In this document: positions 466 through 14,453 of the stretch, one piece after another
How positions within the stretch are numbered: the first letter of the stretch is position 1
Layout of the letters: each line of letters opens with the position of its first letter
NCBI GenBank assembly: GCA_002426645.1
Contig: DIRN01000069.1
Span: 12,469 to 76,468 of the forward strand
Direction: 5' to 3'
DNA: 64,000 nucleotides
From: Firmicutes bacterium UBA5435
GTDB lineage: Bacteria > Bacillota > UBA5435
Position numbers and translations under genes: made by a program
The notes under the pieces: model-generated
Told to the model about the DNA's origin: nothing
What the model saw: the letters and a program-made list of their open reading frames with translations, nothing else
Databases searched by the model: none

Positions 466-1059
466 TTGGCTCATATTACGCGGACCCGAAGAGACCCTTA
501 GGGGTCCGCGACAGTACCCTCTGAAAACCTCTATCGATAAAGTTTTGCAGAACTTGTCTTTGCTACTAACTTTCATATTAAGCTGAACAGCAATATTGAA
601 CCTATCTCCTACTGCCTCAAATATTTTGCTAATATCAATAATGGATACTGCGAGATTCAATTGGTTCACCTCTTTATTTTCTTCAAGCCGTCATTTTCTA
701 CATAGCCAAGTCATTTTATTGACTAAATCCTTACTTTTTTCATGCTGAAAGATTTTTGGATTTCGGGAGGAATAAGTATATAAATGTAGAATATGTATTT
801 AATGAAATTAAATAGTATTGTTCATGTTTAAGTTAACTACTAGTCTAAACGTTTGGGTAGTTGCTCCTCATAAAAGGCAAGAATTTATTCTATCTATAAA
901 CATAGCATAAACATCCGCAAAACATCTAAACATAATATTCAACGAAACTGTCATACAGTTTTCGAGATTGTATATTTCCGATGAACTCATATAACAATTA
1001 GAATTAAATTGTTGAAGGGTAGCAATAAGATCACTATTATGATGGAAGAAGGATTGATT

Positions 1060-1815
1060 ATGCAGATTGACATTACATTCGTTCCACATGAAGACAAGCT
1101 GTTACTCCCGCTTCCGTATAATCAAGTAGTTCAGGGATTTATCTATAATCATCTTGATTATGCATTAAGTTCTTGGCTACATGACGAGGCATATGAGTAT
1201 AAGCGACGTAGATTCAAATTGTTTATCTTTGGACGTCTCACTGGAAAATATGCAATTAAGGAGAAGATGATAGAGTTTCAAGGACCTACTAGCTTAGCAG
1301 TTAGATCTGTAAATAATGATGTGCTATCGTCCTTTGCTCAACATCTGCTGAAAAAGAAAGAAGTTATACTAGGAAAAACACCCTGTACTATTTTAAATAT
1401 AAGTCTTACCCCTGACCCTGACATCGACTTTTCGAAACCAGTTCGGTTAAAGGCTCTTTCACCTGTAACAGTCTATAGCACATTACGTACATTTGATGGG
1501 CGCAAGAAGACGTATTATTATTCTCCAATGGAATCGGATTGGGAAAATCAAGTATTAGAAAATCTCATTCGTAAGAGTCAGGCTATTAGTGAAATAAAGG
1601 GTAATCATTTACCCAACAATGTTTGGATAAGGCCTAAGAATATTAAGACTTCCCATATGAAGATCCTTACGTTTAAGAATACGATAATAAAAGGCTGGAT
1701 GGGAATGTACGAGGTGTTTTTACCTAAAGAATTTTTCTTACTCGGGTACAATGGTGGTTTTGGGGCAAAGAATAGCCAAGGCTTTGGCACGATGGAGGTA
1801 ATAAGTAATGCTTAA
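1060..1815 (+). CDS. cas6: Cas6 crRNA endoribonuclease (type I-B)
   Basis: C-terminal Gly-rich loop GYNGGFGAKNSQGFG is the Cas6 hallmark. It is the first gene of a colinear cas operon. Start placed at ATG 1060 (RBS GAAGGA about 7 nt upstream, MQIDITF...), in frame with the track ORF 1009-1815. Confidence 0.8.
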   Translation: MQIDITFVPHEDKLLLPLPYNQVVQGFIYNHLDYALSSWLHDEAYEYKRRRFKLFIFGRLTGKYAIKEKMIEFQGPTSLAVRSVNNDVLSSFAQHLLKKKEVILGKTPCTILNISLTPDPDIDFSKPVRLKALSPVTVYSTLRTFDGRKKTYYYSPMESDWENQVLENLIRKSQAISEIKGNHLPNNVWIRPKNIKTSHMKILTFKNTIIKGWMGMYEVFLPKEFFLLGYNGGFGAKNSQGFGTMEVISNA

Positions 1816-3799
1816 GACCATGTATAACTTAAGTTTAGACTTCCTTTATTATGAACTCCGGAGGAATGGAGAACCCGATGATCCACTGGAGTGGTATATC
1901 TTTGTGAGAGAGGAAGATCCGCTGCGTATTTTTCCATACTTAATGGAATCTCCAAAAGAGTCTATGGCAACGAATTTTTATGTTTTATTTCCATCACCTG
2001 AAGATGAGACCACTGCCATCTTAGAACAGAGGGAGTTTGATCCTGATAAGCATACACAAAAGATTCCATTTATAAAACCTACAGGTTCGCAATCTCCAGC
2101 TTTAGGTCCTGTCATTAAGCGTTCTTATAATAAAGCTAAAGGAGGCCCTTCAGAAAACACTCTTTGGACGAATATTACTTCATTCGAGAGGATAGCTAAT
2201 GAGGGTAAAGAGTGGTCTGGTTTTTTCAAATATGCAGTAGATGTCTTAAAGAGACCTAATATTAAATTTATGGGCAAGCTCTATGAGGGTGATGAGGAGA
2301 GACCAGCTTTAGTACAGGCAATAGAGATAATTCCGGAGACGAAAACAGCCTTTTTAACAATTATCGGTGAAGATGGAAGATTACCCGGGGAGCACTTGGA
2401 GTATATTCATTATCTGCAGGAGGTAATAGGGGATGAGAAATATGCTACATCAAGTTATTTTCCTGTAGAAAATGGCATAGATATTTTAACCGGAACTAAA
2501 GGCGTTATATATCCTAACGCACTAAAAGGAGCTGGTATAAATATCACCAACGTGGATCGTATTGGCGTTTTTTCCATGTTAGAACCATCAAACGCATGGA
2601 AGAAGTATGCTTTATCTGTGGAGTCTGCAGATCTGCTATATATATTCAGTTACCATTTTAGAGATAAGTTTATAGGCAGAGTTGCTGGAGAAAGGGCTTT
2701 AATTTTACCTGAAGTTACTATGTCTTCAGAGACGCGAAAGGAATTCATTAATGATTTTCTAAATTACGTATCTGCTTCGCAAATGGAAAAAAGGGTATCT
2801 GCAAGGGAGGATTATCTGAGCTTTTTAGCAGCTGAAGAAGATTCTTTGGTCGGTATATCTATTATATGGGCGAAATTTGGACAACTTATGGAGAATGTAA
2901 AGGGCGTAATCTTTGATATTATGCCATCGAGATTATCTGCCCTATCCAAACTTATTGCTAAACAGAAGAAGATTAAATCACCTGTATTTCCACAGTATTG
3001 GATAGAAGATTGCGACTTCGATTTAGGACTTAATGGTTTTGCTAATCTTCTTAAACGCCCAGGAGGAATGCGCAACGCTAAAGTCAATAACGGTATGCAA
3101 TTGTTCAAGGTCAAGAGATATTTAGCAGCATCATTGTATGATGGTCAACAAATGAATGAGACGCTGTTATGGGACGAGATCATAGCCACTGCTCGGGAAT
3201 ACCTTATAGAAGCTCAAAATCGTGGTAATTCTTATGGCTTAACTAATGAAGGCGTTTCAAAGAGCGGAGAGGCATATCTGACATTAGCTGGTTGGGTAAG
3301 ATATATAGCTAGCTATTTAGATTTTTTTAGGAGGGCAGGTGTATTATTAAAGATGAATGACTGGGCTTATGAACCTCATTGTGATGAACTTAGAAAGTTT
3401 TTTAAAGATGCAGAAGCTACAGCGGGTCTGGACACTGAAGAGAAGGTTTACGCGTTTCTAATAGGGGCGCTCTTTGGTAAGTTAATGTCAATTCAAGCTG
3501 CACGAGGTGTTAATGTAGCTTCCAATGCTCTTACATGGCTGAGGCGACTTAGCTTATCCGCGAAGGACCTTCCCGAATTATATGTTAAAATACGTGAAAA
3601 GCTTTTTGCATATCAAAGTAGGGGCAGCAGTAGCATGAATGCAGTTTTAGAAGAAATAGGTCATTTAGGTGTAAAGATAGGTATTCCTAAGAATTTGAGC
3701 GCTATTGAAACAAATTATTATCTTCTTCTTGGGCAATCCCTATCTAATGTATTGATGCCACCGGTTTCTAAAGAGGATATCGAAAGCGAGGAGAAATAG
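1808..3799 (+). CDS. cas8b: Cas8b (Csh1) large subunit of type I-B Cascade
   Basis: 663-aa ORF between cas6 and cas7. Size and position fit Cas8b; no other family motif recognised. ATG 1808 overlaps the cas6 stop (coupled) with GGAGG upstream. Confidence 0.7.
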   Translation: MLKTMYNLSLDFLYYELRRNGEPDDPLEWYIFVREEDPLRIFPYLMESPKESMATNFYVLFPSPEDETTAILEQREFDPDKHTQKIPFIKPTGSQSPALGPVIKRSYNKAKGGPSENTLWTNITSFERIANEGKEWSGFFKYAVDVLKRPNIKFMGKLYEGDEERPALVQAIEIIPETKTAFLTIIGEDGRLPGEHLEYIHYLQEVIGDEKYATSSYFPVENGIDILTGTKGVIYPNALKGAGINITNVDRIGVFSMLEPSNAWKKYALSVESADLLYIFSYHFRDKFIGRVAGERALILPEVTMSSETRKEFINDFLNYVSASQMEKRVSAREDYLSFLAAEEDSLVGISIIWAKFGQLMENVKGVIFDIMPSRLSALSKLIAKQKKIKSPVFPQYWIEDCDFDLGLNGFANLLKRPGGMRNAKVNNGMQLFKVKRYLAASLYDGQQMNETLLWDEIIATAREYLIEAQNRGNSYGLTNEGVSKSGEAYLTLAGWVRYIASYLDFFRRAGVLLKMNDWAYEPHCDELRKFFKDAEATAGLDTEEKVYAFLIGALFGKLMSIQAARGVNVASNALTWLRRLSLSAKDLPELYVKIREKLFAYQSRGSSSMNAVLEEIGHLGVKIGIPKNLSAIETNYYLLLGQSLSNVLMPPVSKEDIESEEK

Positions 3800-3800
3800 T

Positions 3801-4760
3801 ATGAATAGTTATTTAAAGAATAGACATGAGTTTATATTTGCGTATGATATACGTATGGCTAATCCCAATGGAGATCCAGATGAAAATAGACCTAGAGTCT
3901 TACCAGATGGTACGTATTATGTCACAGATGTGAGGCTTAAGAGGTTTATAAGAGACTTTTTTAAAATGCAGGGACGCGATATTCTAGTTGATGATATTGA
4001 AGGTAAGACCACAAACCTTACAGGTCGTGTTGGTGCATATCTTAATAAGATTGGGAAACCAAAGGCGAACGGACAAGAATTGGTTGATATAATTTTAGAC
4101 TCTTTTATTGATGCTCGGCTCTTTGGAAGTACCTTAGCTTTTAAAGAATCAGCAGAACAGAAGTTTTCGCCAGAGCCTAAGACTCTTACTGGTGCAGTGC
4201 AGATTAAACATGGGGAAGCTTTACATCCTTGCCATGAGGTTTGGATAAGAGGTACCACTACCTTTGCTAGCCAAGAAGATAAGACACAGGGCACATTTAC
4301 CGAGATGTATGGTTTAAGATATGGATTATTTGCATTCAATGGAATAGCTAATCAGTATAATGCTGGGAAGTCTCATTTAACGGAAGAGGACTATCGCGAG
4401 ATGCTGCGGGCTATGTGGCTTGGTGTTAGGTCTGCTGCAAATACCCGTAGTAAGGCGGGTCAATCTCCTCGCTTTCTGTTAGAGATAGAGTATAAGACTG
4501 GGAGTGAATTTCAATTTGGATGTCTTTTAGACTATGTAAAAGTCTATGCTAATGATTCTGAGAAGAAAGATCCAACAACATGGTCTAGTCCTGATGATTA
4601 TACTATAGATCTATCCAGGCTCTTCCAAAGACTCAATCAGGCAGCTAACCATATTGATAAAGTATCGTATTGCATAAGTCCGGATATAAGATTAAAGGAA
4701 GAGGATATGAATGCTCTAAGGGAATATACAAACCTTAATTATGATAAGTTGGTGATGTAA
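3801..4760 (+). CDS. cas7: Cas7 (Csh2/DevR family) Cascade backbone subunit
   Basis: 319 aa. N-terminal ...FAYDIRMANPNGDPDENRPR... is the conserved Cas7/DevR motif. Position is after cas8b. Confidence 0.85.
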   Translation: MNSYLKNRHEFIFAYDIRMANPNGDPDENRPRVLPDGTYYVTDVRLKRFIRDFFKMQGRDILVDDIEGKTTNLTGRVGAYLNKIGKPKANGQELVDIILDSFIDARLFGSTLAFKESAEQKFSPEPKTLTGAVQIKHGEALHPCHEVWIRGTTTFASQEDKTQGTFTEMYGLRYGLFAFNGIANQYNAGKSHLTEEDYREMLRAMWLGVRSAANTRSKAGQSPRFLLEIEYKTGSEFQFGCLLDYVKVYANDSEKKDPTTWSSPDDYTIDLSRLFQRLNQAANHIDKVSYCISPDIRLKEEDMNALREYTNLNYDKLVM

Positions 4761-4761
4761 T

Positions 4762-5511
4762 ATGGCGGGCCATTCTGTTGTGGCATTTAAATACCATGCA
4801 CGGTTTGGACATTTTCTGTGTGCAGAGGCCAGTGCAAGCGGTTTATCATACCCTGTGCCTTCACGCACTGCTTTATTGGGTTTAGTAGGAGCAGTTCTGG
4901 GGTTGGAAAAGGATTCACCTCAGGAGCTTCTAAAAGGAGCAGAATTCGCTGTGCACGGCGTTAAACCAGTTACTCATTGGCATACAGCTAAGTTTAGGAA
5001 GGATCCACCGGATACATTATCTTGGACAGTGAGAAGAGGCGCTAAAGGGACATCAAAAAACGAGAAAGCGACATTACCCTCTCAAGAATGGCTCTTCAAT
5101 CCCAGCTATGTAATTATATCGTATTTGCCAGATGAGTACCATAGCGAGTTTGTCAGGCGTCTAAAGACCAAAGAACATTTCTATACGCCATGTATGGGAT
5201 TGAGTGAAATGTTAGCACATCTGGATTTTGTAGATGAGGGTATTGCAGAGTCTACAGGTGAAGACGAAATAATAAATTCTTTGACGTTAGTGAGGGCCGA
5301 CTGTGCTACTTTCGATGTCAGTAAGGTGATTTCAGAGGGGAAAAGGTTAGATGTACATTTGATTAGTCTTCCAAGGGATGTTACGGTTGATAGGGGATTT
5401 ACGCATGCTGATTATATATATGAGACGATGGGAAGACCTATTTCTGTTCGTACTTCTCATGGCTGGCGTGTGACTATAGACGGAGATATAAAGGAGTTTA
5501 TGTATCTATGA
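4762..5511 (+). CDS. cas5: Cas5 (type I-B)
   Basis: 249 aa. Gly-rich Cas5 N-terminal region (..SRTALLGLVGAVLGLEKD..). Tightly coupled to cas7 and cas3. Confidence 0.8.
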   Translation: MAGHSVVAFKYHARFGHFLCAEASASGLSYPVPSRTALLGLVGAVLGLEKDSPQELLKGAEFAVHGVKPVTHWHTAKFRKDPPDTLSWTVRRGAKGTSKNEKATLPSQEWLFNPSYVIISYLPDEYHSEFVRRLKTKEHFYTPCMGLSEMLAHLDFVDEGIAESTGEDEIINSLTLVRADCATFDVSKVISEGKRLDVHLISLPRDVTVDRGFTHADYIYETMGRPISVRTSHGWRVTIDGDIKEFMYL

Positions 5512-7793
5512 AACCTTTAAAATCGCATCCTAATAAATTATTGGAATGCCATATAAGAGAGGTACAACAGGCGGCTAATTCGATTCTATCACGTCACTGT
5601 TGTATACCCGTGGAAGCCGATGTTATAGAAGATATTGTGAGCCTTCATGATGTGGGTAAATCTACGTTATGGTTTCAGAAATATATCAATACTCAACGTT
5701 GGCAAGGGGATCCTATGCAAAAGGCTCATACTCCCCTTGGCTTTGTCCTCTCCACTGCTCTAGGAAGGGCAGCGGGGAGGGATCTTAAGTGGTATTTGCC
5801 TGTGTGTTTCAGCGTATTGGGACATCATAGCGGAATTCCAAGTAGAGAAGATATAAACTCCAAGTTACAGGGCGATGAGTGGCGAGATATATTAGAAAGA
5901 CAGTTTGAAAGTTTCCCTACAGTATCAGCTGCTGAAGCTATTGGACATTCTGCTAATCTATTAGATAATTTGGAGATAGACTTCTTCAAACTATATCGGC
6001 ATTGGTATAAGCTCTTTGTCGATGTGGATAAAATTTTAGAAGAAAATATTGAAGAGGCTATCCATCTTAGGCTATCCACACAATTTTGCTTTAGTGTGTT
6101 GCTTGAGGCTGATAAGGTATACCTTGCTCTCTCTGAGGATGGCAAGGATAGGTATCTTAACTCATCTAAGCCTGATTTTCAAGGAAACCTAGTCGATAGT
6201 TTCATAGCTGATCAGCCATATACACCAATAAATGAATTGAGATCAAAAGTGCGTAAGGAAGCATTAGAAATTATGGATTTGAATTCCGAATCACGGCTCT
6301 TTACGTTGACTTTACCTACAGGACTTGGTAAGACGTTGACCGCTGCATCCCTAGCTTTTACTAGATGGAAAAGGGCGGACGAAGCAAAGAAAATAATTAT
6401 CGTTTTGCCATATCTTTCAATAATAGATCAAACGTCTAAAGTCTATGGGGATCTTCTGGTTAATCCTGAGACTTCAGTGTTGATGCAAAGTCATAGCCTT
6501 AGCGATTATAAGTACGATGATACTGAAGAAGAGGATGCGGAGTTTTTTTTAGATACATGGCAAAGTAGCATTATTATTACTACTTTCGACCAATTTTTAC
6601 TTGCGTTATTAAGCTCTAAAACAAGGCATCAAATGAGATTTCATAATATGGTGGACGCTATCGTTATTATGGATGAGGTGCAAGCGATGCCTACTCATCT
6701 TTGGGATATAGTGGATCAGGCAATACGCAGCATGACTAAATCATTTAACACCACTGTCATAGCTATGTCAGCAACTCAACCAGGATTTATTAGAGATGCT
6801 TGTGAGTTGACGCGAGACAAGGTGAATCTTTATAGCCAATTTAATAGATATCAATTAGTATTGAAACATAGAACCCCAATGAAACTGGATGAATTCAGCG
6901 ATATGCTGCTTCGAGAGAGGAAGAAGGAGCTTAGCGAGAAGAGATTACTGGTTACACTTAATACTCGACGTAGCGCAAGAAAGGTGTTCGATAATTTGAA
7001 GGATTTTTGGCCACATCCAGTATATTTTCTCAGTGCGGATGTTACGCCTAAGGATCGGTTAAATGTCATTGAGAAACTTAAGAAAGATAAGGGGCCATGT
7101 CTTGTGGTATCTACTCAGGTTATAGAAGCAGGGGTAGATATAGATATGGATCATGTTATACGAGATTTTGCCCCTCTAGATAGTATTATTCAGGTCGCTG
7201 GTAGATGTAATCGAAATGGCAAAAAGACGTGTTCTGATGTAGAAGTAGTTTATCTAGTTGGTAAAGATGGAAAGTCATATGCTTCTAAAGTGTATAAAGA
7301 TGTTTCAGGCGGACCTGATCTTAGTTTGCAAGAAACTATTGGTGTTCTTGCGTCTCATGATGTGATACCGGAGCATTCTATACTTCCCTTTTGCGAAGAA
7401 TACTTTAAACGATTATATGAGAAGAAGAATATTGGTGCCACGCATACAAGGCAATGGGCTGGATTTATAGAGCCTTTGCCTGTTTCACAGCTTTTAAGGG
7501 GCGATTCATCACGGCAGCACTCGCTGATAATACCAGAGCGGGATGAAGATAAAGAAGAGCTGCTGCAGATAGTTGAAGAGACGCTTTCTCTGGAAGATCA
7601 TTGGGAACGAAGGAGAAGGCTTCGTAAAATAGCAGCTCGTTTAGCTAGCATAACAGTTAATGTTTGGGCTACTAGAGGATTTAATCCGGCGTATATAGCA
7701 GATAATATAGGTCCATATTGGTTTGTCAGGGAAGGGTATTATCATGAGGTTCGCGGGCTTGATTTGGGCATAAATGAGCCTTTGCTCTTGTAA
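5508..7793 (+). CDS. cas3: Cas3 nuclease-helicase (N-terminal HD domain fused to DEAD/DEAH helicase)
   Basis: HD motifs (LHDVGK, LGHHSG) at the N-terminus. Walker A LPTGLGKT and DEVQ box (IVIMDEVQA) in the helicase core. 761 aa. Confidence 0.9.
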   Translation: MKPLKSHPNKLLECHIREVQQAANSILSRHCCIPVEADVIEDIVSLHDVGKSTLWFQKYINTQRWQGDPMQKAHTPLGFVLSTALGRAAGRDLKWYLPVCFSVLGHHSGIPSREDINSKLQGDEWRDILERQFESFPTVSAAEAIGHSANLLDNLEIDFFKLYRHWYKLFVDVDKILEENIEEAIHLRLSTQFCFSVLLEADKVYLALSEDGKDRYLNSSKPDFQGNLVDSFIADQPYTPINELRSKVRKEALEIMDLNSESRLFTLTLPTGLGKTLTAASLAFTRWKRADEAKKIIIVLPYLSIIDQTSKVYGDLLVNPETSVLMQSHSLSDYKYDDTEEEDAEFFLDTWQSSIIITTFDQFLLALLSSKTRHQMRFHNMVDAIVIMDEVQAMPTHLWDIVDQAIRSMTKSFNTTVIAMSATQPGFIRDACELTRDKVNLYSQFNRYQLVLKHRTPMKLDEFSDMLLRERKKELSEKRLLVTLNTRRSARKVFDNLKDFWPHPVYFLSADVTPKDRLNVIEKLKKDKGPCLVVSTQVIEAGVDIDMDHVIRDFAPLDSIIQVAGRCNRNGKKTCSDVEVVYLVGKDGKSYASKVYKDVSGGPDLSLQETIGVLASHDVIPEHSILPFCEEYFKRLYEKKNIGATHTRQWAGFIEPLPVSQLLRGDSSRQHSLIIPERDEDKEELLQIVEETLSLEDHWERRRRLRKIAARLASITVNVWATRGFNPAYIADNIGPYWFVREGYYHEVRGLDLGINEPLLL

Positions 7794-7828
7794 TTTTTTA
7801 GATATCTATATATGGTGGGGTGATAGAT

Positions 7829-8356
7829 ATGTCTGAAGGAGGAAATGTTACGGGTGGAGGACATCTAGAGGTGAACGGGACAATGATGTGGTATTACCAC
7901 ATTTGTCCTCGGGAAGTTTGGTTGATAGGGCGTCAGATCACCCCCTACAAAGAAGATGATAATATGGAGATGGGCCGATATATATCTGAAAAGTCTTATA
8001 AGCGTGAGAGGAAAGAAGTTGAGATTGGTCCAGTTAAAATTGATGTCCTCTCAGCCCGAAATGGACGGGTTGTTGTGGGCGAGATAAAAAAGAGTTCTAA
8101 ATATATGGAAAGTGCTAAGATGCAACTCTTGCTTTACCTAGATATATTACAGAAGGCAGGGATAGAAGCTGAAGGAGAACTGCGCGTTCCGTTGGAGCGA
8201 AAACGGGAAAGGGTAGTTTTGGATGAAGAAAATAAAAAGAAATTAGAGCATGCGAAACGAGATATTTTGAGAATTTTATATTTGGGCAAACCTCCAGAAC
8301 CTAAAAAGGTAAACTGGTGTACTAAATGCGCCTACAGGGAATTTTGTTGGTCATAA
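7829..8356 (+). CDS. cas4: Cas4 RecB-like nuclease with Fe-S cysteine cluster
   Basis: N-terminal Cys (ICPREVW) plus C-terminal CTKCAYREFC cluster. RecB-motif residues present. Start ATG 7829 (RBS GGTGGGG 8 nt upstream); the track ORF starts at GTG 7820. Confidence 0.8.
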   Translation: MSEGGNVTGGGHLEVNGTMMWYYHICPREVWLIGRQITPYKEDDNMEMGRYISEKSYKRERKEVEIGPVKIDVLSARNGRVVVGEIKKSSKYMESAKMQLLLYLDILQKAGIEAEGELRVPLERKRERVVLDEENKKKLEHAKRDILRILYLGKPPEPKKVNWCTKCAYREFCWS

Positions 8357-8378
8357 AGTATTCTTAGGGGGCTAAGTC

Positions 8379-9374
8379 ATGAAAAAGACTGTGTATTTAT
8401 TTACAGATGGGCAAGTATCCCGTAAGGATAATACATTTGTCTTTCAAAGTGCTACTGATAAGCGTTTCCTTCCGATAGAACAAATAGGAGAGATATATGT
8501 CTTTGGTGAGGTTGATGTAACAAAGAAATTTCTTGAGTTGGCATCTAAGAATGAGATATTAATTCACTATTTTAATTATTATGGCTATTATGTTGGTACA
8601 TTTTATCCGCGGGAGCACCTAAACTCGGGATATATGATACTCAAACAAGCAGAAGCATATATGAACGAGGAAAGCAGGTTAGGATTGGCAAATAAATTTG
8701 TAATGGGAGCAGTAGAAAATATTGAAAGAGTGTTAAAATACTACGAGCGAAGGAAAGAAGGTTTTCCTAGTTTATTATTGGAGCAACTTGGAGAATTGAA
8801 GTCGCAAATTATGCTACAGGAATCTGTTGAAGCTCTTATGGCTATAGAAGGTAATATTCGTAATCTTTATTATTCAGCCTTTGATTTTATAATAGGGGAT
8901 CCAAATTTTAAATTTGTGGAGAGAAGTAGGCGGCCTCCTAAAAACGAATTGAACACGTTAATTAGTTTTGGAAATTCCATGGTATATACTACTGTATTGA
9001 GTCAGATTTATAGAACACATCTTGATCCGAGAATAGGATACCTTCACGCGACTAATTTTCGATCGTTTAGTTTAAATTTAGATGTGGCGGAGATTTTTAA
9101 GCCTATTATAGTTGATAGATTGATATTTAATATACTTAATCATAAGGCTATCACGAAAAATGATTTCTATGAAGATTCTGGCGGTATCATAATGAAAGAA
9201 ACAGGTAAGAAGACTTTTGTAAGCGAGTTTGATAAGCGACTTAAAACTACGATTAAGTTACGAGGGCTAGGAAGATCTGTGTCGTATAGAACTTTGATAC
9301 GTCTTGAGCTTTATAAAATTCAGAAACATCTAATGGGTGAGAAGGAGTACAAGCCATTTGTAGCAAGTTGGTGA
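8379..9374 (+). CDS. cas1: Cas1 integrase
   Basis: 331 aa. Typical Cas1 length and C-terminal acidic catalytic region. Position is between cas4 and cas2. Confidence 0.85.
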   Translation: MKKTVYLFTDGQVSRKDNTFVFQSATDKRFLPIEQIGEIYVFGEVDVTKKFLELASKNEILIHYFNYYGYYVGTFYPREHLNSGYMILKQAEAYMNEESRLGLANKFVMGAVENIERVLKYYERRKEGFPSLLLEQLGELKSQIMLQESVEALMAIEGNIRNLYYSAFDFIIGDPNFKFVERSRRPPKNELNTLISFGNSMVYTTVLSQIYRTHLDPRIGYLHATNFRSFSLNLDVAEIFKPIIVDRLIFNILNHKAITKNDFYEDSGGIIMKETGKKTFVSEFDKRLKTTIKLRGLGRSVSYRTLIRLELYKIQKHLMGEKEYKPFVASW

Positions 9375-9547
9375 AACAATAAACTTATACGTTTAAAGAA
9401 ATAAGTAGGGTCAGTATGTTTTTAGAAGCCCGTTAGAGTGAGCCTTGACAATAATTAATGACTGATGAAGTTCAAATCATAGATCTTATATTCGTCCGAA
9501 AAAATGTGTATTAAGGCAGTAGAATTTTACAATAAGAGAGGATTGAA

Positions 9548-9811
9548 ATGTTTGTTATTCTTGTATATGATATAAAAGAAAAGAGGGTCGCTAAAGTTCT
9601 TAAGAAATGTAGAGAGTATCTCTACTGGGTACAAAATTCTGTCTTTGAGGGCGAGATTACGCCCGTTAAGTTGAATATTCTTAAAGAAGAACTAAACGAC
9701 ATTATAATGTCTGATGAGGATTCGGTAATTATATATTCATTTCGTACGACAAAGTATAGTTCCATTGATATTTTAGGAGTACGGAAAGGTGGAGAGGACA
9801 ATATCCTTTGA
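9548..9811 (+). CDS. cas2: Cas2
   Basis: 87 aa, MFVILVYDI... N-terminus (the beta1 strand with catalytic Asp). RBS AGAGAGGATTGAAATG. Last cas gene before the array. Confidence 0.85.
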   Translation: MFVILVYDIKEKRVAKVLKKCREYLYWVQNSVFEGEITPVKLNILKEELNDIIMSDEDSVIIYSFRTTKYSSIDILGVRKGGEDNIL

Positions 9812-9968: not shown

Positions 9969-10455
9969 GTTTATATTCTACCTATGAGGGTTTGAAACCC
10001 ACACGGACACTCGCCCGCCCCTGACAGCATCACCGTTTATATTCTACCTATGAGGGTTTGAAACAAAATTGCTTCGTATCTTAAGTATAGCAAATCATAG
10101 TTTATATTCTACCTATGAGGGTTTGAAACTACCCCCTCTTACACACCTCCCGACTGAACTGTATTGTTTATATTCTACCTATGAGGGTTTGAAACTGACG
10201 TCATATGGAGCGCTATGATTTCGAGGCCAGGTTTATATTCTACCTATGAGGGTTTGAAACATCTAATAGGGAATGCTCTTCTTTTCGCAGTGGAGTTTAT
10301 ATTCTACCTATGAGGGTTTGAAACGGCGGAGATGCAACGCTACAAATTCCGCTACACATAGTTTATATTCTACCTATGAGGGTTTGAAACGCAGGCGCAG
10401 GCGGAGGGGTAATCATAGAAGCAATGTTTATATCCTACCTTGTATGGAAGGGCCG
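9969..10455 (+). CRISPR. CRISPR array: 8 x 30-bp repeat GTTTATATTCTACCTATGAGGGTTTGAAAC, 7 spacers (34-36 bp), last repeat degenerate
   Basis: Exact repeats at 9969, 10035, 10100, 10166, 10231, 10295 and 10361. Degenerate copy GTTTATATCCTACCTTGTATGGAAGGGCCG at 10426-10455. The GTTTGAAAC 3' end (8-nt handle) is typical of I-B repeats. Confidence 0.95.
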
Positions 10456-10849
10456 CGTCAAGACCCCTTGTTTAATAAACACGAAATTTAACGCATTTTC
10501 ATGGAATATCCTTTCGACAAGTATTATACACTACGGCGGCTCGCTTGCTCAGTAGGCGATTTAAGTTTGTATCATTCTTTGAGTAAAAGCCGTTAGACCC
10601 TATCAATATACTTATCTGTGTAAATGTTAATTTCTCGCCTTCGTTAGTATAGAATATAACAAGCAAAGACTTTCTTGTGAGATCGCCATTGCTAAAGTTT
10701 TAAGCTTGTTGAGTAAGAATCAAGAGGGCAGTTTCATTTTAACGGTGCTTATAAGCACCACAAAATAATGTATTTTTATGCGCGCAGAAGGATACCTCTT
10801 CCTATTATTGAAATATTATGTACCCAACTAGCGGGGATAAAATATTTCT

Positions 10850-10950
10850 TAACTGAAAAGGCACATTTGCAGAAATGTAGTGTCGCAAAGCCACGGGCCT
10901 AAAATGAGAGAGGGGGAACTTTCATCATGGTAGCCGGGTTATCAGGCTGA
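10850..10950 (+). promoter_or_regulatory. Putative c-di-GMP-I (GEMM) riboswitch aptamer
   Basis: Two-hairpin architecture. Hairpin 1 is GGC(10860)-ACAU-UUGCA-GAAA(10872-5)-UGUAG-UGUCGCAAA-GCC(10892), carrying the conserved CGCAAAGCC junction and a GNRA tetraloop. Hairpin 2 is flanked by a tetraloop-receptor-like CCUAAA (10898-10903) and CAUGG (10926-10930), followed by GGUAGCCGGGUUAUCAGG. The primary sequence is close to the Vc2 GEMM-I aptamer. Confidence 0.55.
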
Positions 10951-11058
10951 GAGGAGCATGGATTTTAAGGGTCTTTTGGAGTATAATTTTGAGATTGAGT
11001 TTTGCGATCTTTTTGAAGTATTTGCAGCTTTGTGCCTTCAAGAAGGAGGCAATTATCA

Positions 11059-11385
11059 ATGAAGAATTCAAAGTTTATTAAAAAAGCTAGTGATATGATA
11101 AGGATAAAAAATATTACGAAGTTCCACAAACGCTTAATGGCTTTAGAAGAAGAGAAAAGTAGACTCCATAAAGGAATAGCAGTAATTGATGAAAGTTATG
11201 AGAAATGCGAAAAATACATGGCGCAAAATAGTAAGAAAAATTCTGAAGTGCCAGTAGATATTATGTTGTTATCACGAATAAGAAGCTTAGAAAAGAAGAA
11301 GAAAGACAAATTAGATAGGTTGGTTCAGGTAGAGAAAGAAATAGTGGCTATAAAGAGAAATATTAAAAACAGTACAATAGATTGA
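11059..11385 (+). CDS. Small basic coiled-coil protein of unknown function (108 aa)
   Basis: ATG 11059 with a perfect RBS AGAAGGAGG 9 nt upstream (the track ORF starts at GTG 11032). Lys/Glu-rich heptad-like sequence. Only ORF between the riboswitch and rpsB. Confidence 0.55.
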   Translation: MKNSKFIKKASDMIRIKNITKFHKRLMALEEEKSRLHKGIAVIDESYEKCEKYMAQNSKKNSEVPVDIMLLSRIRSLEKKKKDKLDRLVQVEKEIVAIKRNIKNSTID

Positions 11386-11431
11386 GCTATCGATAAGAAA
11401 AGATAATTAAAAATTCGTTTGAGTTCATCTA

Positions 11432-11460
11432 TTGATTGAAGTTGCAAATTGTGGTATACT
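11432..11460 (+). promoter_or_regulatory. sigmaA-type promoter of rpsB (TTGATT-17-TGgTATACT, extended -10)
   Basis: -35 TTGATT 11432-37, 17-nt spacer, TG at 11452-53, -10 TATACT 11455-60. Lies about 120 nt upstream of rpsB. Confidence 0.5.
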
Positions 11461-11579
11461 ACAAAAGAGTGCTATAACACACGGTCCCAGATCATTAGAG
11501 GGGTGCCTCTGAAAAGTTAGAGGTTCTCTGATGGAATGAAGGGTCCGGAGGATTAACCATGGAGGGAGGTGGCGAGGAA

Positions 11580-12374
11580 ATGGCCGTTATATCTATGAAA
11601 CAACTTCTAGAGGCAGGAGTTCACTTTGGACATCAGACGCGTCGTTGGAATCCTAAGATGGCACCATATATCTTTACTGAACGTAATGGGATATATATAA
11701 TAGATCTCCAACAAACTGTGCGCAAGATTGAAGAGGCCTATACCTTCGTCAAAGAGACTGTTCAAGAAGGCGGAAACATCCTCTTTGTAGGTACAAAGAA
11801 ACAGGCCCAAGAATGTGTTCAAGAAGAAGCCATTCGTTGCGGAATGTTCTATGTCAATGTGCGTTGGCTCGGTGGTATGCTTACTAACTATAAGACCATA
11901 AGAAGCCGTATTGAGAGGTTAGGGCAGATCGAGCGGATGGAAGAGGATGGTATCTTCAAGGTTTTACCAAAAAAAGAGGTTCTTCAACTCACTAAAGAAA
12001 AAGAAAAGCTGTCAAAGTATTTTGACGGAATACGTGATATGAAGAAACTGCCTTCAGCTATATTCATAGTAGATCCAAGGAAAGAGCGGATCGCTGTAGC
12101 TGAGGCTAGAACACTAGGTATCCCTATAATCGCTATTGTGGATACTAACTGCGATCCTGAAGAAATAGACTATGTCATACCCGGTAATGATGATGCTATT
12201 AGAGCCGTAAGATTATTAACTGGGAAGATAGCTGATGCAGTCTTAGAAGCTCGAGAGGGCCAGCAGGATGTTGCTGAACAAGAGGATTCGGCTGAAGCTA
12301 CTGACGTTGTAGAAGAAGATAATGATATTCAGGAAGATGAAGTAGCTGAGAACGAAGAAGATGGTGAAGTATAA
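11580..12374 (+). CDS. rpsB: 30S ribosomal protein S2
   Basis: [27 protein letters not shown]... is the canonical S2 N-terminus. Acidic C-terminal tail. Start ATG 11580 (GGAGGGAGG upstream); the track ORF starts at 11559. Confidence 0.95.
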
Positions 12375-12497
12375 TCTGTTTTAAAGTTTAGTAAAATAGA
12401 GGAGTGCCTGTATGCTTTGGCAGGCACTCCCTAAGTTGAGTGACACGTAAGGAGGGATACTACCGTTTACCGTGAAGACGGGCATACGGTTAAGTCT

Positions 12498-14453
<1,956 letters not shown>

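Follow-up and report, generated by a model that had tools for sequence, protein, structure and literature searches.

A c-di-GMP-I (GEMM-I) class riboswitch with a natural uridine at the C92 position in the leader of an orphan small gene from an uncultured Clostridia lineage

The GEMM-I (c-di-GMP-I) riboswitch class is well known, and as a member of it the element described here is ordinary, apart from one unusual feature, a rare U that replaces C in its ligand pocket. GEMM-I elements are numerous in Clostridia, where they precede very varied genes, and rare variants with a changed ligand occur among them (PMC7266159). The crystallised reference is Vc2 of Vibrio cholerae, located upstream of tfoY. 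Vc2 acts on the stability of an upstream sRNA (bioRxiv 10.1101/617340). G20 and C92 of its pocket are less conserved than A47, and the mutant structures 3MUM, 3MUR and 3MUT have been described (PMC9049102). The exchange C92U lowers the c-di-GMP response of Vc2 without abolishing it, the affinity of this mutant being above that of the double mutant (bioRxiv 10.1101/617340). Changes in the pocket can also re-target the fold: G20A gives cGAMP binding (PMC6140456), and the double change G20A/C92U turns the GEMM-I fold towards c-di-AMP (PMC7288161). The GEMM-Ib c-AMP-GMP riboswitches (for example Geobacter Gs1761) have the same fold as the element studied here and were re-targeted by a single pocket substitution, G20 to A, with C92 kept (PMC6140456, PMC7266159).

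We analysed a 64-kb stretch of DNA (the window) that derives from a fermentation metagenome (SRR1562006) and in which a reading of the sequence alone (the sequence-only reading) had proposed a GEMM riboswitch at 10850-10950. Like this element, Bc1 and Bc2 of the Bacillus cereus group and Cd1 of Clostridioides difficile are GEMM-I aptamers in Firmicute 5' leaders, and Cd1 controls the flagellar flgB operon by terminating its transcription. Bc1 has a long platform, with about 220 nt before the AUG, and uses two intrinsic terminators (PMC11218506); the window also has a long leader, but without a terminator and with an orphan small protein as the target. Searching both strands of the window with 4227 Rfam families gave a single match at gathering threshold, RF01051 (c-di-GMP-I) at 10850-10946 on the forward strand (65.1 bits versus a gathering score of 35, E 1.7e-10), which aligns to model positions 1-87 of 87. 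A permissive Rfam scan of 10400-11620 again placed RF01051 there and suppressed two overlapping families of the same clan on account of their lower scores, while c-di-GMP-II was matched neither in the window at gathering score nor, at E <= 5, within 10400-11620. The covariance search hence bears out the proposed GEMM candidate at about 30 bits above the gathering score, and the same aptamer was independently recovered with 70.5 bits on a related contig (L003; 849 bp, ENA), which comes from a different sample and encodes an 82%-identical downstream protein. By fold, the alignment identifies the element at 10850-10946 as a genuine GEMM-I class member.

The sequence features that had first pointed to the class were all found again, and together they mark a type 1 aptamer (GNRA tetraloop and receptor): GGC-ACA, a hairpin 1 capped by a GAAA tetraloop (10872-10875 in the covariance-model alignment), GUCGCAAAGCC (10882-10892), the predicted tetraloop-receptor halves CCUAAA (10898-10903) and CAUGG (10926-10930) flanking a hairpin 2 of about 9 pairs, and GGUAGCCGGGUUAUCAGG (10929-10946), all on the forward strand. 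Folding for minimum free energy (MFE), independent of the covariance model, recovers P1 and both hairpins as a three-helix junction. P1 is formed by CUG (10853-10855) and CAG (10943-10945), that is by the pairs C10853-G10945, U10854-A10944 and G10855-C10943, a reading based on these folds and on a register analysis against 104 natural aptamers; in the ligand-free fold an additional A10856-U10942 pair is possible. Nucleotide roles were taken from the literature (PMC4744006, PMC6140456, PMC9049102) by laying Vc2 numbering on the window through the Rfam alignment. Accordingly placed are the G20 equivalent G10860 (model position 11), which contacts a ligand guanine (PMC6140456, PMC4744006), the C44 equivalent C10884, which forms the universally conserved interhelical pair with the G83 equivalent G10933 (PMC4744006), and A10887 (model position 38), the equivalent of the invariant A47, which intercalates between the two ligand bases (PMC4744006, PMC9049102). 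C10884, G10933 and A10887 all occupy the expected model positions. The window thus shares with Vc2 the three-helix fold, the GAAA tetraloop and its receptor as well as the C44-G83 pair and the G20 and A47 equivalents; it differs in its short P1 (3 bp), in its Clostridia host and in having U where Vc2 has C92.

This U is U10942, model position 83 in the alignments of both window and L003; it stands just 5' of the 3' strand of P1, where C92 of Vc2 forms a Watson-Crick pair with the second ligand guanine, and it represents a rare state. It follows directly on the segment GGUAGCCGGGUUA, which the sequence-only reading had listed and which is indeed present; the base after it, however, is U where nearly all family members carry the ligand-pairing C, a difference that had gone unnoticed. 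We deduced the Vc2 C92 position from G83, A47 and the P1 geometry of the Vc2 construct and then checked the placement empirically. For this check, a register-preserving pattern with 29 fixed bases and a free pocket position was used to collect 104 distinct natural GEMM-I aptamers from metagenomes. The base equivalent to C92 is C in 103 of the 104, A in one and U in none. The single A, on the minus strand of metagenome contig Ga0316201_10077501 (L236), is possibly a further pocket variant. A scan of viral contigs had returned mostly chance matches, with about five real aptamers, and was superseded by the more specific metagenome pattern.

The same collection bears on the register of the alignment. 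From the top P1 pair to G20, the junction comprises 5 or 6 nt in 91 of the 104 natural aptamers. In the standard register it measures 5 nt in the window and 6 nt in L003, with a P1 of 3 bp, whereas treating the U as an insertion and placing C10943 in the pocket leads to junctions of 6 and 7 nt and leaves P1 with 2 bp only. Junction and P1 lengths make a U at the C92 position, common to both orthologues, the better reading of the alignment. Measured against the canonical G20/A47/C92 pocket, the aligned sequence retains G20 (G10860) and departs at C92 (U10942). Because C92 is a determinant of specificity and affinity and does not define the fold, we file the RNA in the GEMM-I fold family and not with the canonical pocket, and its affinity or specificity may differ from that of canonical members. 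Assignment to GEMM-Ib is contradicted by position 20, which is G (G10860) in the window and A according to the GEMM-Ib criterion (PMC6140456); the two depart from the canonical pocket at different positions, G20 being replaced and C92 kept in GEMM-Ib, G20 kept and C92 replaced by U in the window. The C92U variant of Vc2 is engineered, whereas the U of the window is natural and common to two orthologues. We take 3MUR to be the structure of this Vc2 mutant. Its pocket has the same G/A/U bases as we read in the window, and it keeps a partial c-di-GMP response (bioRxiv 10.1101/617340). A natural U at this position could help to map how affinity and specificity are tuned within the GEMM-I fold.

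The two orthologous loci are most similar in the aptamer itself. Identity between window and L003 amounts to 96% in the aptamer, compared with 89% upstream of it, 89% in the leader, 88% in the open reading frame (ORF) and 90% after the ORF, and the only substitution in a stem turns a U-G pair of the window into a C-G pair in L003, an improved pair. The excess over the 88-90% of the flanks argues that the aptamer is under stronger constraint than the adjoining coding sequence. We sought further orthologues for covariation by scanning GTDB genomes and JGI metagenomes with patterns and all 85 fetched loci with a profile, and obtained none. About 70 nt upstream of the aptamer, at 10739-10779 on the forward strand, the window contains a perfect hairpin (GGTGCT-TATA-AGCACC) that is partly conserved in L003; it has a sub-threshold match to the histone 3' stem-loop (23.5 bits, E 7e-4) and is almost certainly a generic hairpin. 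Towards its 3' end (about 700-849), L003 diverges from the window just past the promoter-like site of rpsB and runs into poly-T followed by an Illumina adapter (AGATCGGAAGAGCACACGTCTGAACTCCAGTCAC), which marks this end as an assembly artefact.

As the sequence-only reading had noted, a small ORF with a perfect Shine-Dalgarno (SD) sequence lies about 110 nt downstream: AAGGAGG occupies 11043-11049 on the forward strand, 9 nt before an ATG at 11059 that is 112 nt past the last base of the aptamer. The ORF (11059-11385 on the forward strand, stop included) encodes 108 amino acids. Comparison with L003 gave a dN/dS of 0.28 in frame versus 0.96 and 1.87 in the other two frames, which supports a real, selected gene. 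AlphaFold2 predicts an antiparallel two-helix hairpin of coiled-coil type (helices at residues 2-59 and 66-107, mean pLDDT 89). No Pfam family scored above cutoff for the protein, and Foldseek against the PDB returned generic helical hairpins only, with no match at E <= 1e-3. With the gene judged real and the aptamer confirmed, cis control of the gene by a cyclic-dinucleotide second messenger, as had been proposed, is the natural reading. The riboswitch would place an orphan gene for a 108-aa helical hairpin in a cyclic-dinucleotide regulon, and this is the only functional clue for the protein. A 34-aa upstream ORF in the source annotation (10958-11062, forward strand), the stop of which overlaps the ATG at 11059, is cut short in L003, where a stop follows 6 codons, and was rejected as a probable false call.

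Relatives of the small protein are few. A k-mer protein search found two clusters, and phmmer, run exhaustively over 1.8 billion representatives, added two further relatives with 43% and 32% identity, bringing the family to about four known relatives (108-141 aa as called); the 185,579 species-representative genomes and the JGI metagenomes yielded none. An additional phmmer match to an 807-aa protein covers only query residues 45-100 and was judged spurious. Residues invariant in the family include S46, C50, P65, D67, I68, S72 and R73 (window numbering). Both distant homologues (L004, 3001-3426; L005, 895-1248) are encoded directly upstream of rpsB, so that the small gene adjoins rpsB in three divergent, uncultured Clostridia-like lineages. 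No GEMM-like element was detected upstream of these two homologues at gathering score or at E <= 10, which suggests that the pairing of riboswitch and gene is specific to the lineage of the window.

The leader between aptamer and small gene offers a candidate expression platform that the sequence-only reading had missed. On the forward strand, nucleotides 10995-11043 form a collinear complement of aptamer positions 10853-10894 in three blocks, pairing aptamer AAGGCACA (10858-10865) with leader UGUGCCUU (11031-11038), aptamer UUGCAGA (10867-10873) with leader UUUGCAG (11021-11027) and aptamer GUCGCAAAGC (10882-10891) with leader GUUUUGCGAU (10999-11008). RNAduplex assigned -31.2 kcal/mol to the duplex of this strand with the 5' half of the aptamer, compared with -18.1 +/- 3.2 kcal/mol for dinucleotide shuffles of the leader (z = -4.1); a duplex as good was reached by 1 of 2000 leader shuffles and, when the aptamer half was shuffled instead, by 5 of 2000; among 276 genomic control segments there was none. 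In L003 the corresponding duplex has -32.9 kcal/mol, matched by 2 of 2000 shuffles. Significance is a property of the full collinear duplex only, as the 8-nt match of AAGGCACA to UGUGCCUU alone is equalled by 248 of 2000 shuffles. The anti-aptamer helix takes in the G20, C44 and A47 equivalents and would thereby exclude the ligand pocket, and its 3' end is the anti-SD arm. That arm belongs to a second predicted structure, an SD-sequestering hairpin (UGCCUUC-AAGAA-GGAGGCA, 11033-11051, forward strand, -9.8 kcal/mol) that is invariant in L003 and forms in the aptamer-state folds of L003. While Vc2 acts on upstream sRNA stability (bioRxiv 10.1101/617340), the platform of the window is an anti-aptamer/anti-SD strand, clean-looking, long-range and directly testable.

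A scan of 10560-12500 returned no terminator-like site. Two weak candidates for intrinsic terminators, GGGUCUUUUGG near 10974 and an AGAUUG/CGAUCU stem at 10992-11012, were rejected, the U-runs of the leader not being conserved in L003. As to the 5' end of the transcript, a hexamer TAAAAT (10838-10843, forward strand; TTAAAT in L003) was picked out by eye as a candidate -10 element, having been missed by the consensus promoter scan; it is weak, is accompanied by no good -35 and would put the start near 10850.

Constrained folding compared the aptamer state (A) with the anti-aptamer state (B) and gave a ddG(B-A) of +1.6 to +4.6 kcal/mol for the window and of -3.0 to -3.4 kcal/mol for L003. In these models the two states are nearly iso-energetic, the balance that a ligand-tipped switch needs. 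Unconstrained MFE folding of the window does not pick the anti-aptamer helix. The riboswitch is present in two sequences only, between which the anti-aptamer blocks are almost invariant, and two such nearly identical sequences provide no covariation support for the alternative helix. For transcripts starting at 10850, the modelled unpaired probability of AAGGAGG is 0.29-0.30 in the aptamer state versus 0.57-0.84 in the anti-aptamer state, in both sequences; with a start at 10846 or earlier the contrast is gone in the window (0.42 versus 0.38), UUCUU then being paired to the SD region. From SD accessibility in the modelled states we infer a translational OFF switch, the direction being the weakest step.

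Beyond the small gene lies rpsB (11559-12374), and between the two a promoter-like site with an extended -10 (TTGATT-17-TATACT, 11432-11460) is conserved in L003. t44 is an RNA element that precedes rpsB in enterobacteria. Directly past the promoter-like site, at 11460-11557 on the forward strand, we observed a full-length, sub-threshold match to t44 RNA (RF00127; 32.7 bits against a gathering score of 44, E 8e-5), and the rpsB leader (11386-11575) folds more stably than its shuffles (z = -2.3). For a Clostridia lineage, the stretch 11460-11557 could represent a diverged S2 autoregulatory leader. Judged by these features, rpsB seems to be served by a promoter and a leader of its own, so that the small ORF is left as the target of the riboswitch.

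We favour, with moderate confidence, a GEMM-I riboswitch in the leader of a monocistronic-looking small gene that reads its ligand, most likely c-di-GMP, through G10860, A10887 and U10942 and turns translation OFF at high c-di-GMP. The aptamer (10850-10946) would bind the cyclic dinucleotide at the three-helix junction, with U10942 probably engaging it through a G-U wobble, for which reason we propose a lower affinity than that of canonical members. Without ligand, the leader strand 10995-11043 would invade the 5' half of the aptamer including the pocket bases, which would tie up the anti-SD arm (UGUGCCUUC), leave the SD sequence free and permit translation of the 108-aa protein. With ligand, the aptamer would be locked and the leader strand freed, its 3' end could fold onto GGAGGCA (-9.8 kcal/mol), and the resulting SD hairpin would lower translation. 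Direct support comes from the identity and conservation of the aptamer, the real ORF, the anti-aptamer complementarity, the SD hairpin and the missing terminator; the identity of the ligand, the direction of regulation and control at translation are what we infer. Points that weigh against this reading are the U at the C92 position, which is missing from the 104 natural aptamers and lowered the response of Vc2 to c-di-GMP (bioRxiv 10.1101/617340), and c-di-GMP synthesis by the organism, for which a search of the 64-kb window found no ORF with a GGDEF motif.

The pocket base is where the choice of ligand is most exposed. The element could be a GEMM-I variant with an altered preference, either for 3',3'-cGAMP bound in the orientation opposite to that of Geobacter GEMM-Ib or for two ligands alike: with G20 kept, U10942 would form a Watson-Crick pair with adenine, the U is kept in both orthologues although absent from all 104 natural aptamers, its register is backed by the junction lengths, and pocket changes such as G20A (PMC6140456) and G20A/C92U (PMC7288161) are known to re-target the fold. 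We nevertheless consider this variant improbable, as two other families of the clan scored below RF01051, no sign of a cGAMP synthase was seen in the window and the alternative register, with C10943 in the pocket, could still apply. Similarly doubtful is a more specific proposal in which the G20/A47/U92 pocket defines a GEMM-I subtype, a cGAMP reader or a low-affinity c-di-GMP sensor for high concentrations, that controls a small coiled-coil effector adjoining rpsB. The missing canonical C, together with a gene association that is not conserved beyond one lineage, might even suggest a decaying, non-functional relic or a chance resemblance, but an E-value of 1.7e-10, the intact set of tertiary-contact nucleotides, an aptamer more conserved than the neighbouring coding sequence and its coupling to a statistically significant anti-aptamer strand make this very unlikely indeed.

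If aptamer and ligand are as favoured, the output may still differ, and we give a minority chance to an ON switch, to an effect on the stability or processing of the mRNA (RNase III, for instance, might cleave the anti-aptamer helix of roughly 40 bp) or to Rho-dependent termination. The OFF direction derives from thermodynamic models whose outcome for the window changes with the 5' end assumed, Vc2 acts through RNA stability and not through termination (bioRxiv 10.1101/617340), and Bc1 provides a precedent for a long and complex GEMM-I platform (PMC11218506). The invariance of the SD hairpin and the exact coincidence of the anti-SD arm with the 3' end of the anti-aptamer strand, a textbook translational OFF layout, speak for the favoured output. 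Control might also extend further downstream, the riboswitch mainly governing the essential rpsB-tsf-pyrH-frr operon by read-through with the small ORF as a passenger. That no terminator-like site separates the stop of the small ORF (11385) from rpsB (11559) and that three divergent lineages have the small gene immediately before rpsB would fit such an arrangement. It seems an unlikely one given the conserved promoter-like site (11432-11460) with its full-length t44-like leader, and a GEMM element was found neither near rpsB-tsf in any of the 17 nearest relatives nor with either distant homologue of the small gene.

The sequence-only reading had set the riboswitch immediately downstream of a CRISPR array. 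It does lie downstream, but a gap of about 395 nt that holds a terminator-like hairpin (10541-10559) separates it from the array, which consists of eight 30-nt repeats (GTTTATATTCTACCTATGAGGGTTTGAAAC) at 9969-10455 on the forward strand, the last of them degenerate (10426-10455). The loci of the distant homologues have MutS2 or another gene on the upstream side of the small ORF. On these grounds we rejected a functional link with the array; the array is probably unrelated to the riboswitch and the proximity, which the sequence-only reading had not recognised as such, looks incidental. Among species representatives, the nearest EF-Ts shares only 72% identity and comes from Christensenellaceae/Christensenellales MAGs, which is consistent with an uncultured Clostridia lineage as the host. 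Together with the array, the region 1039-9811 on the forward strand makes up a complete-looking type I CRISPR-Cas locus, in which Cas3 (5508-7793), Cas4 (7820-8356), Cas1 (8379-9374) and Cas2 (9548-9811) are preceded by four more ORFs.
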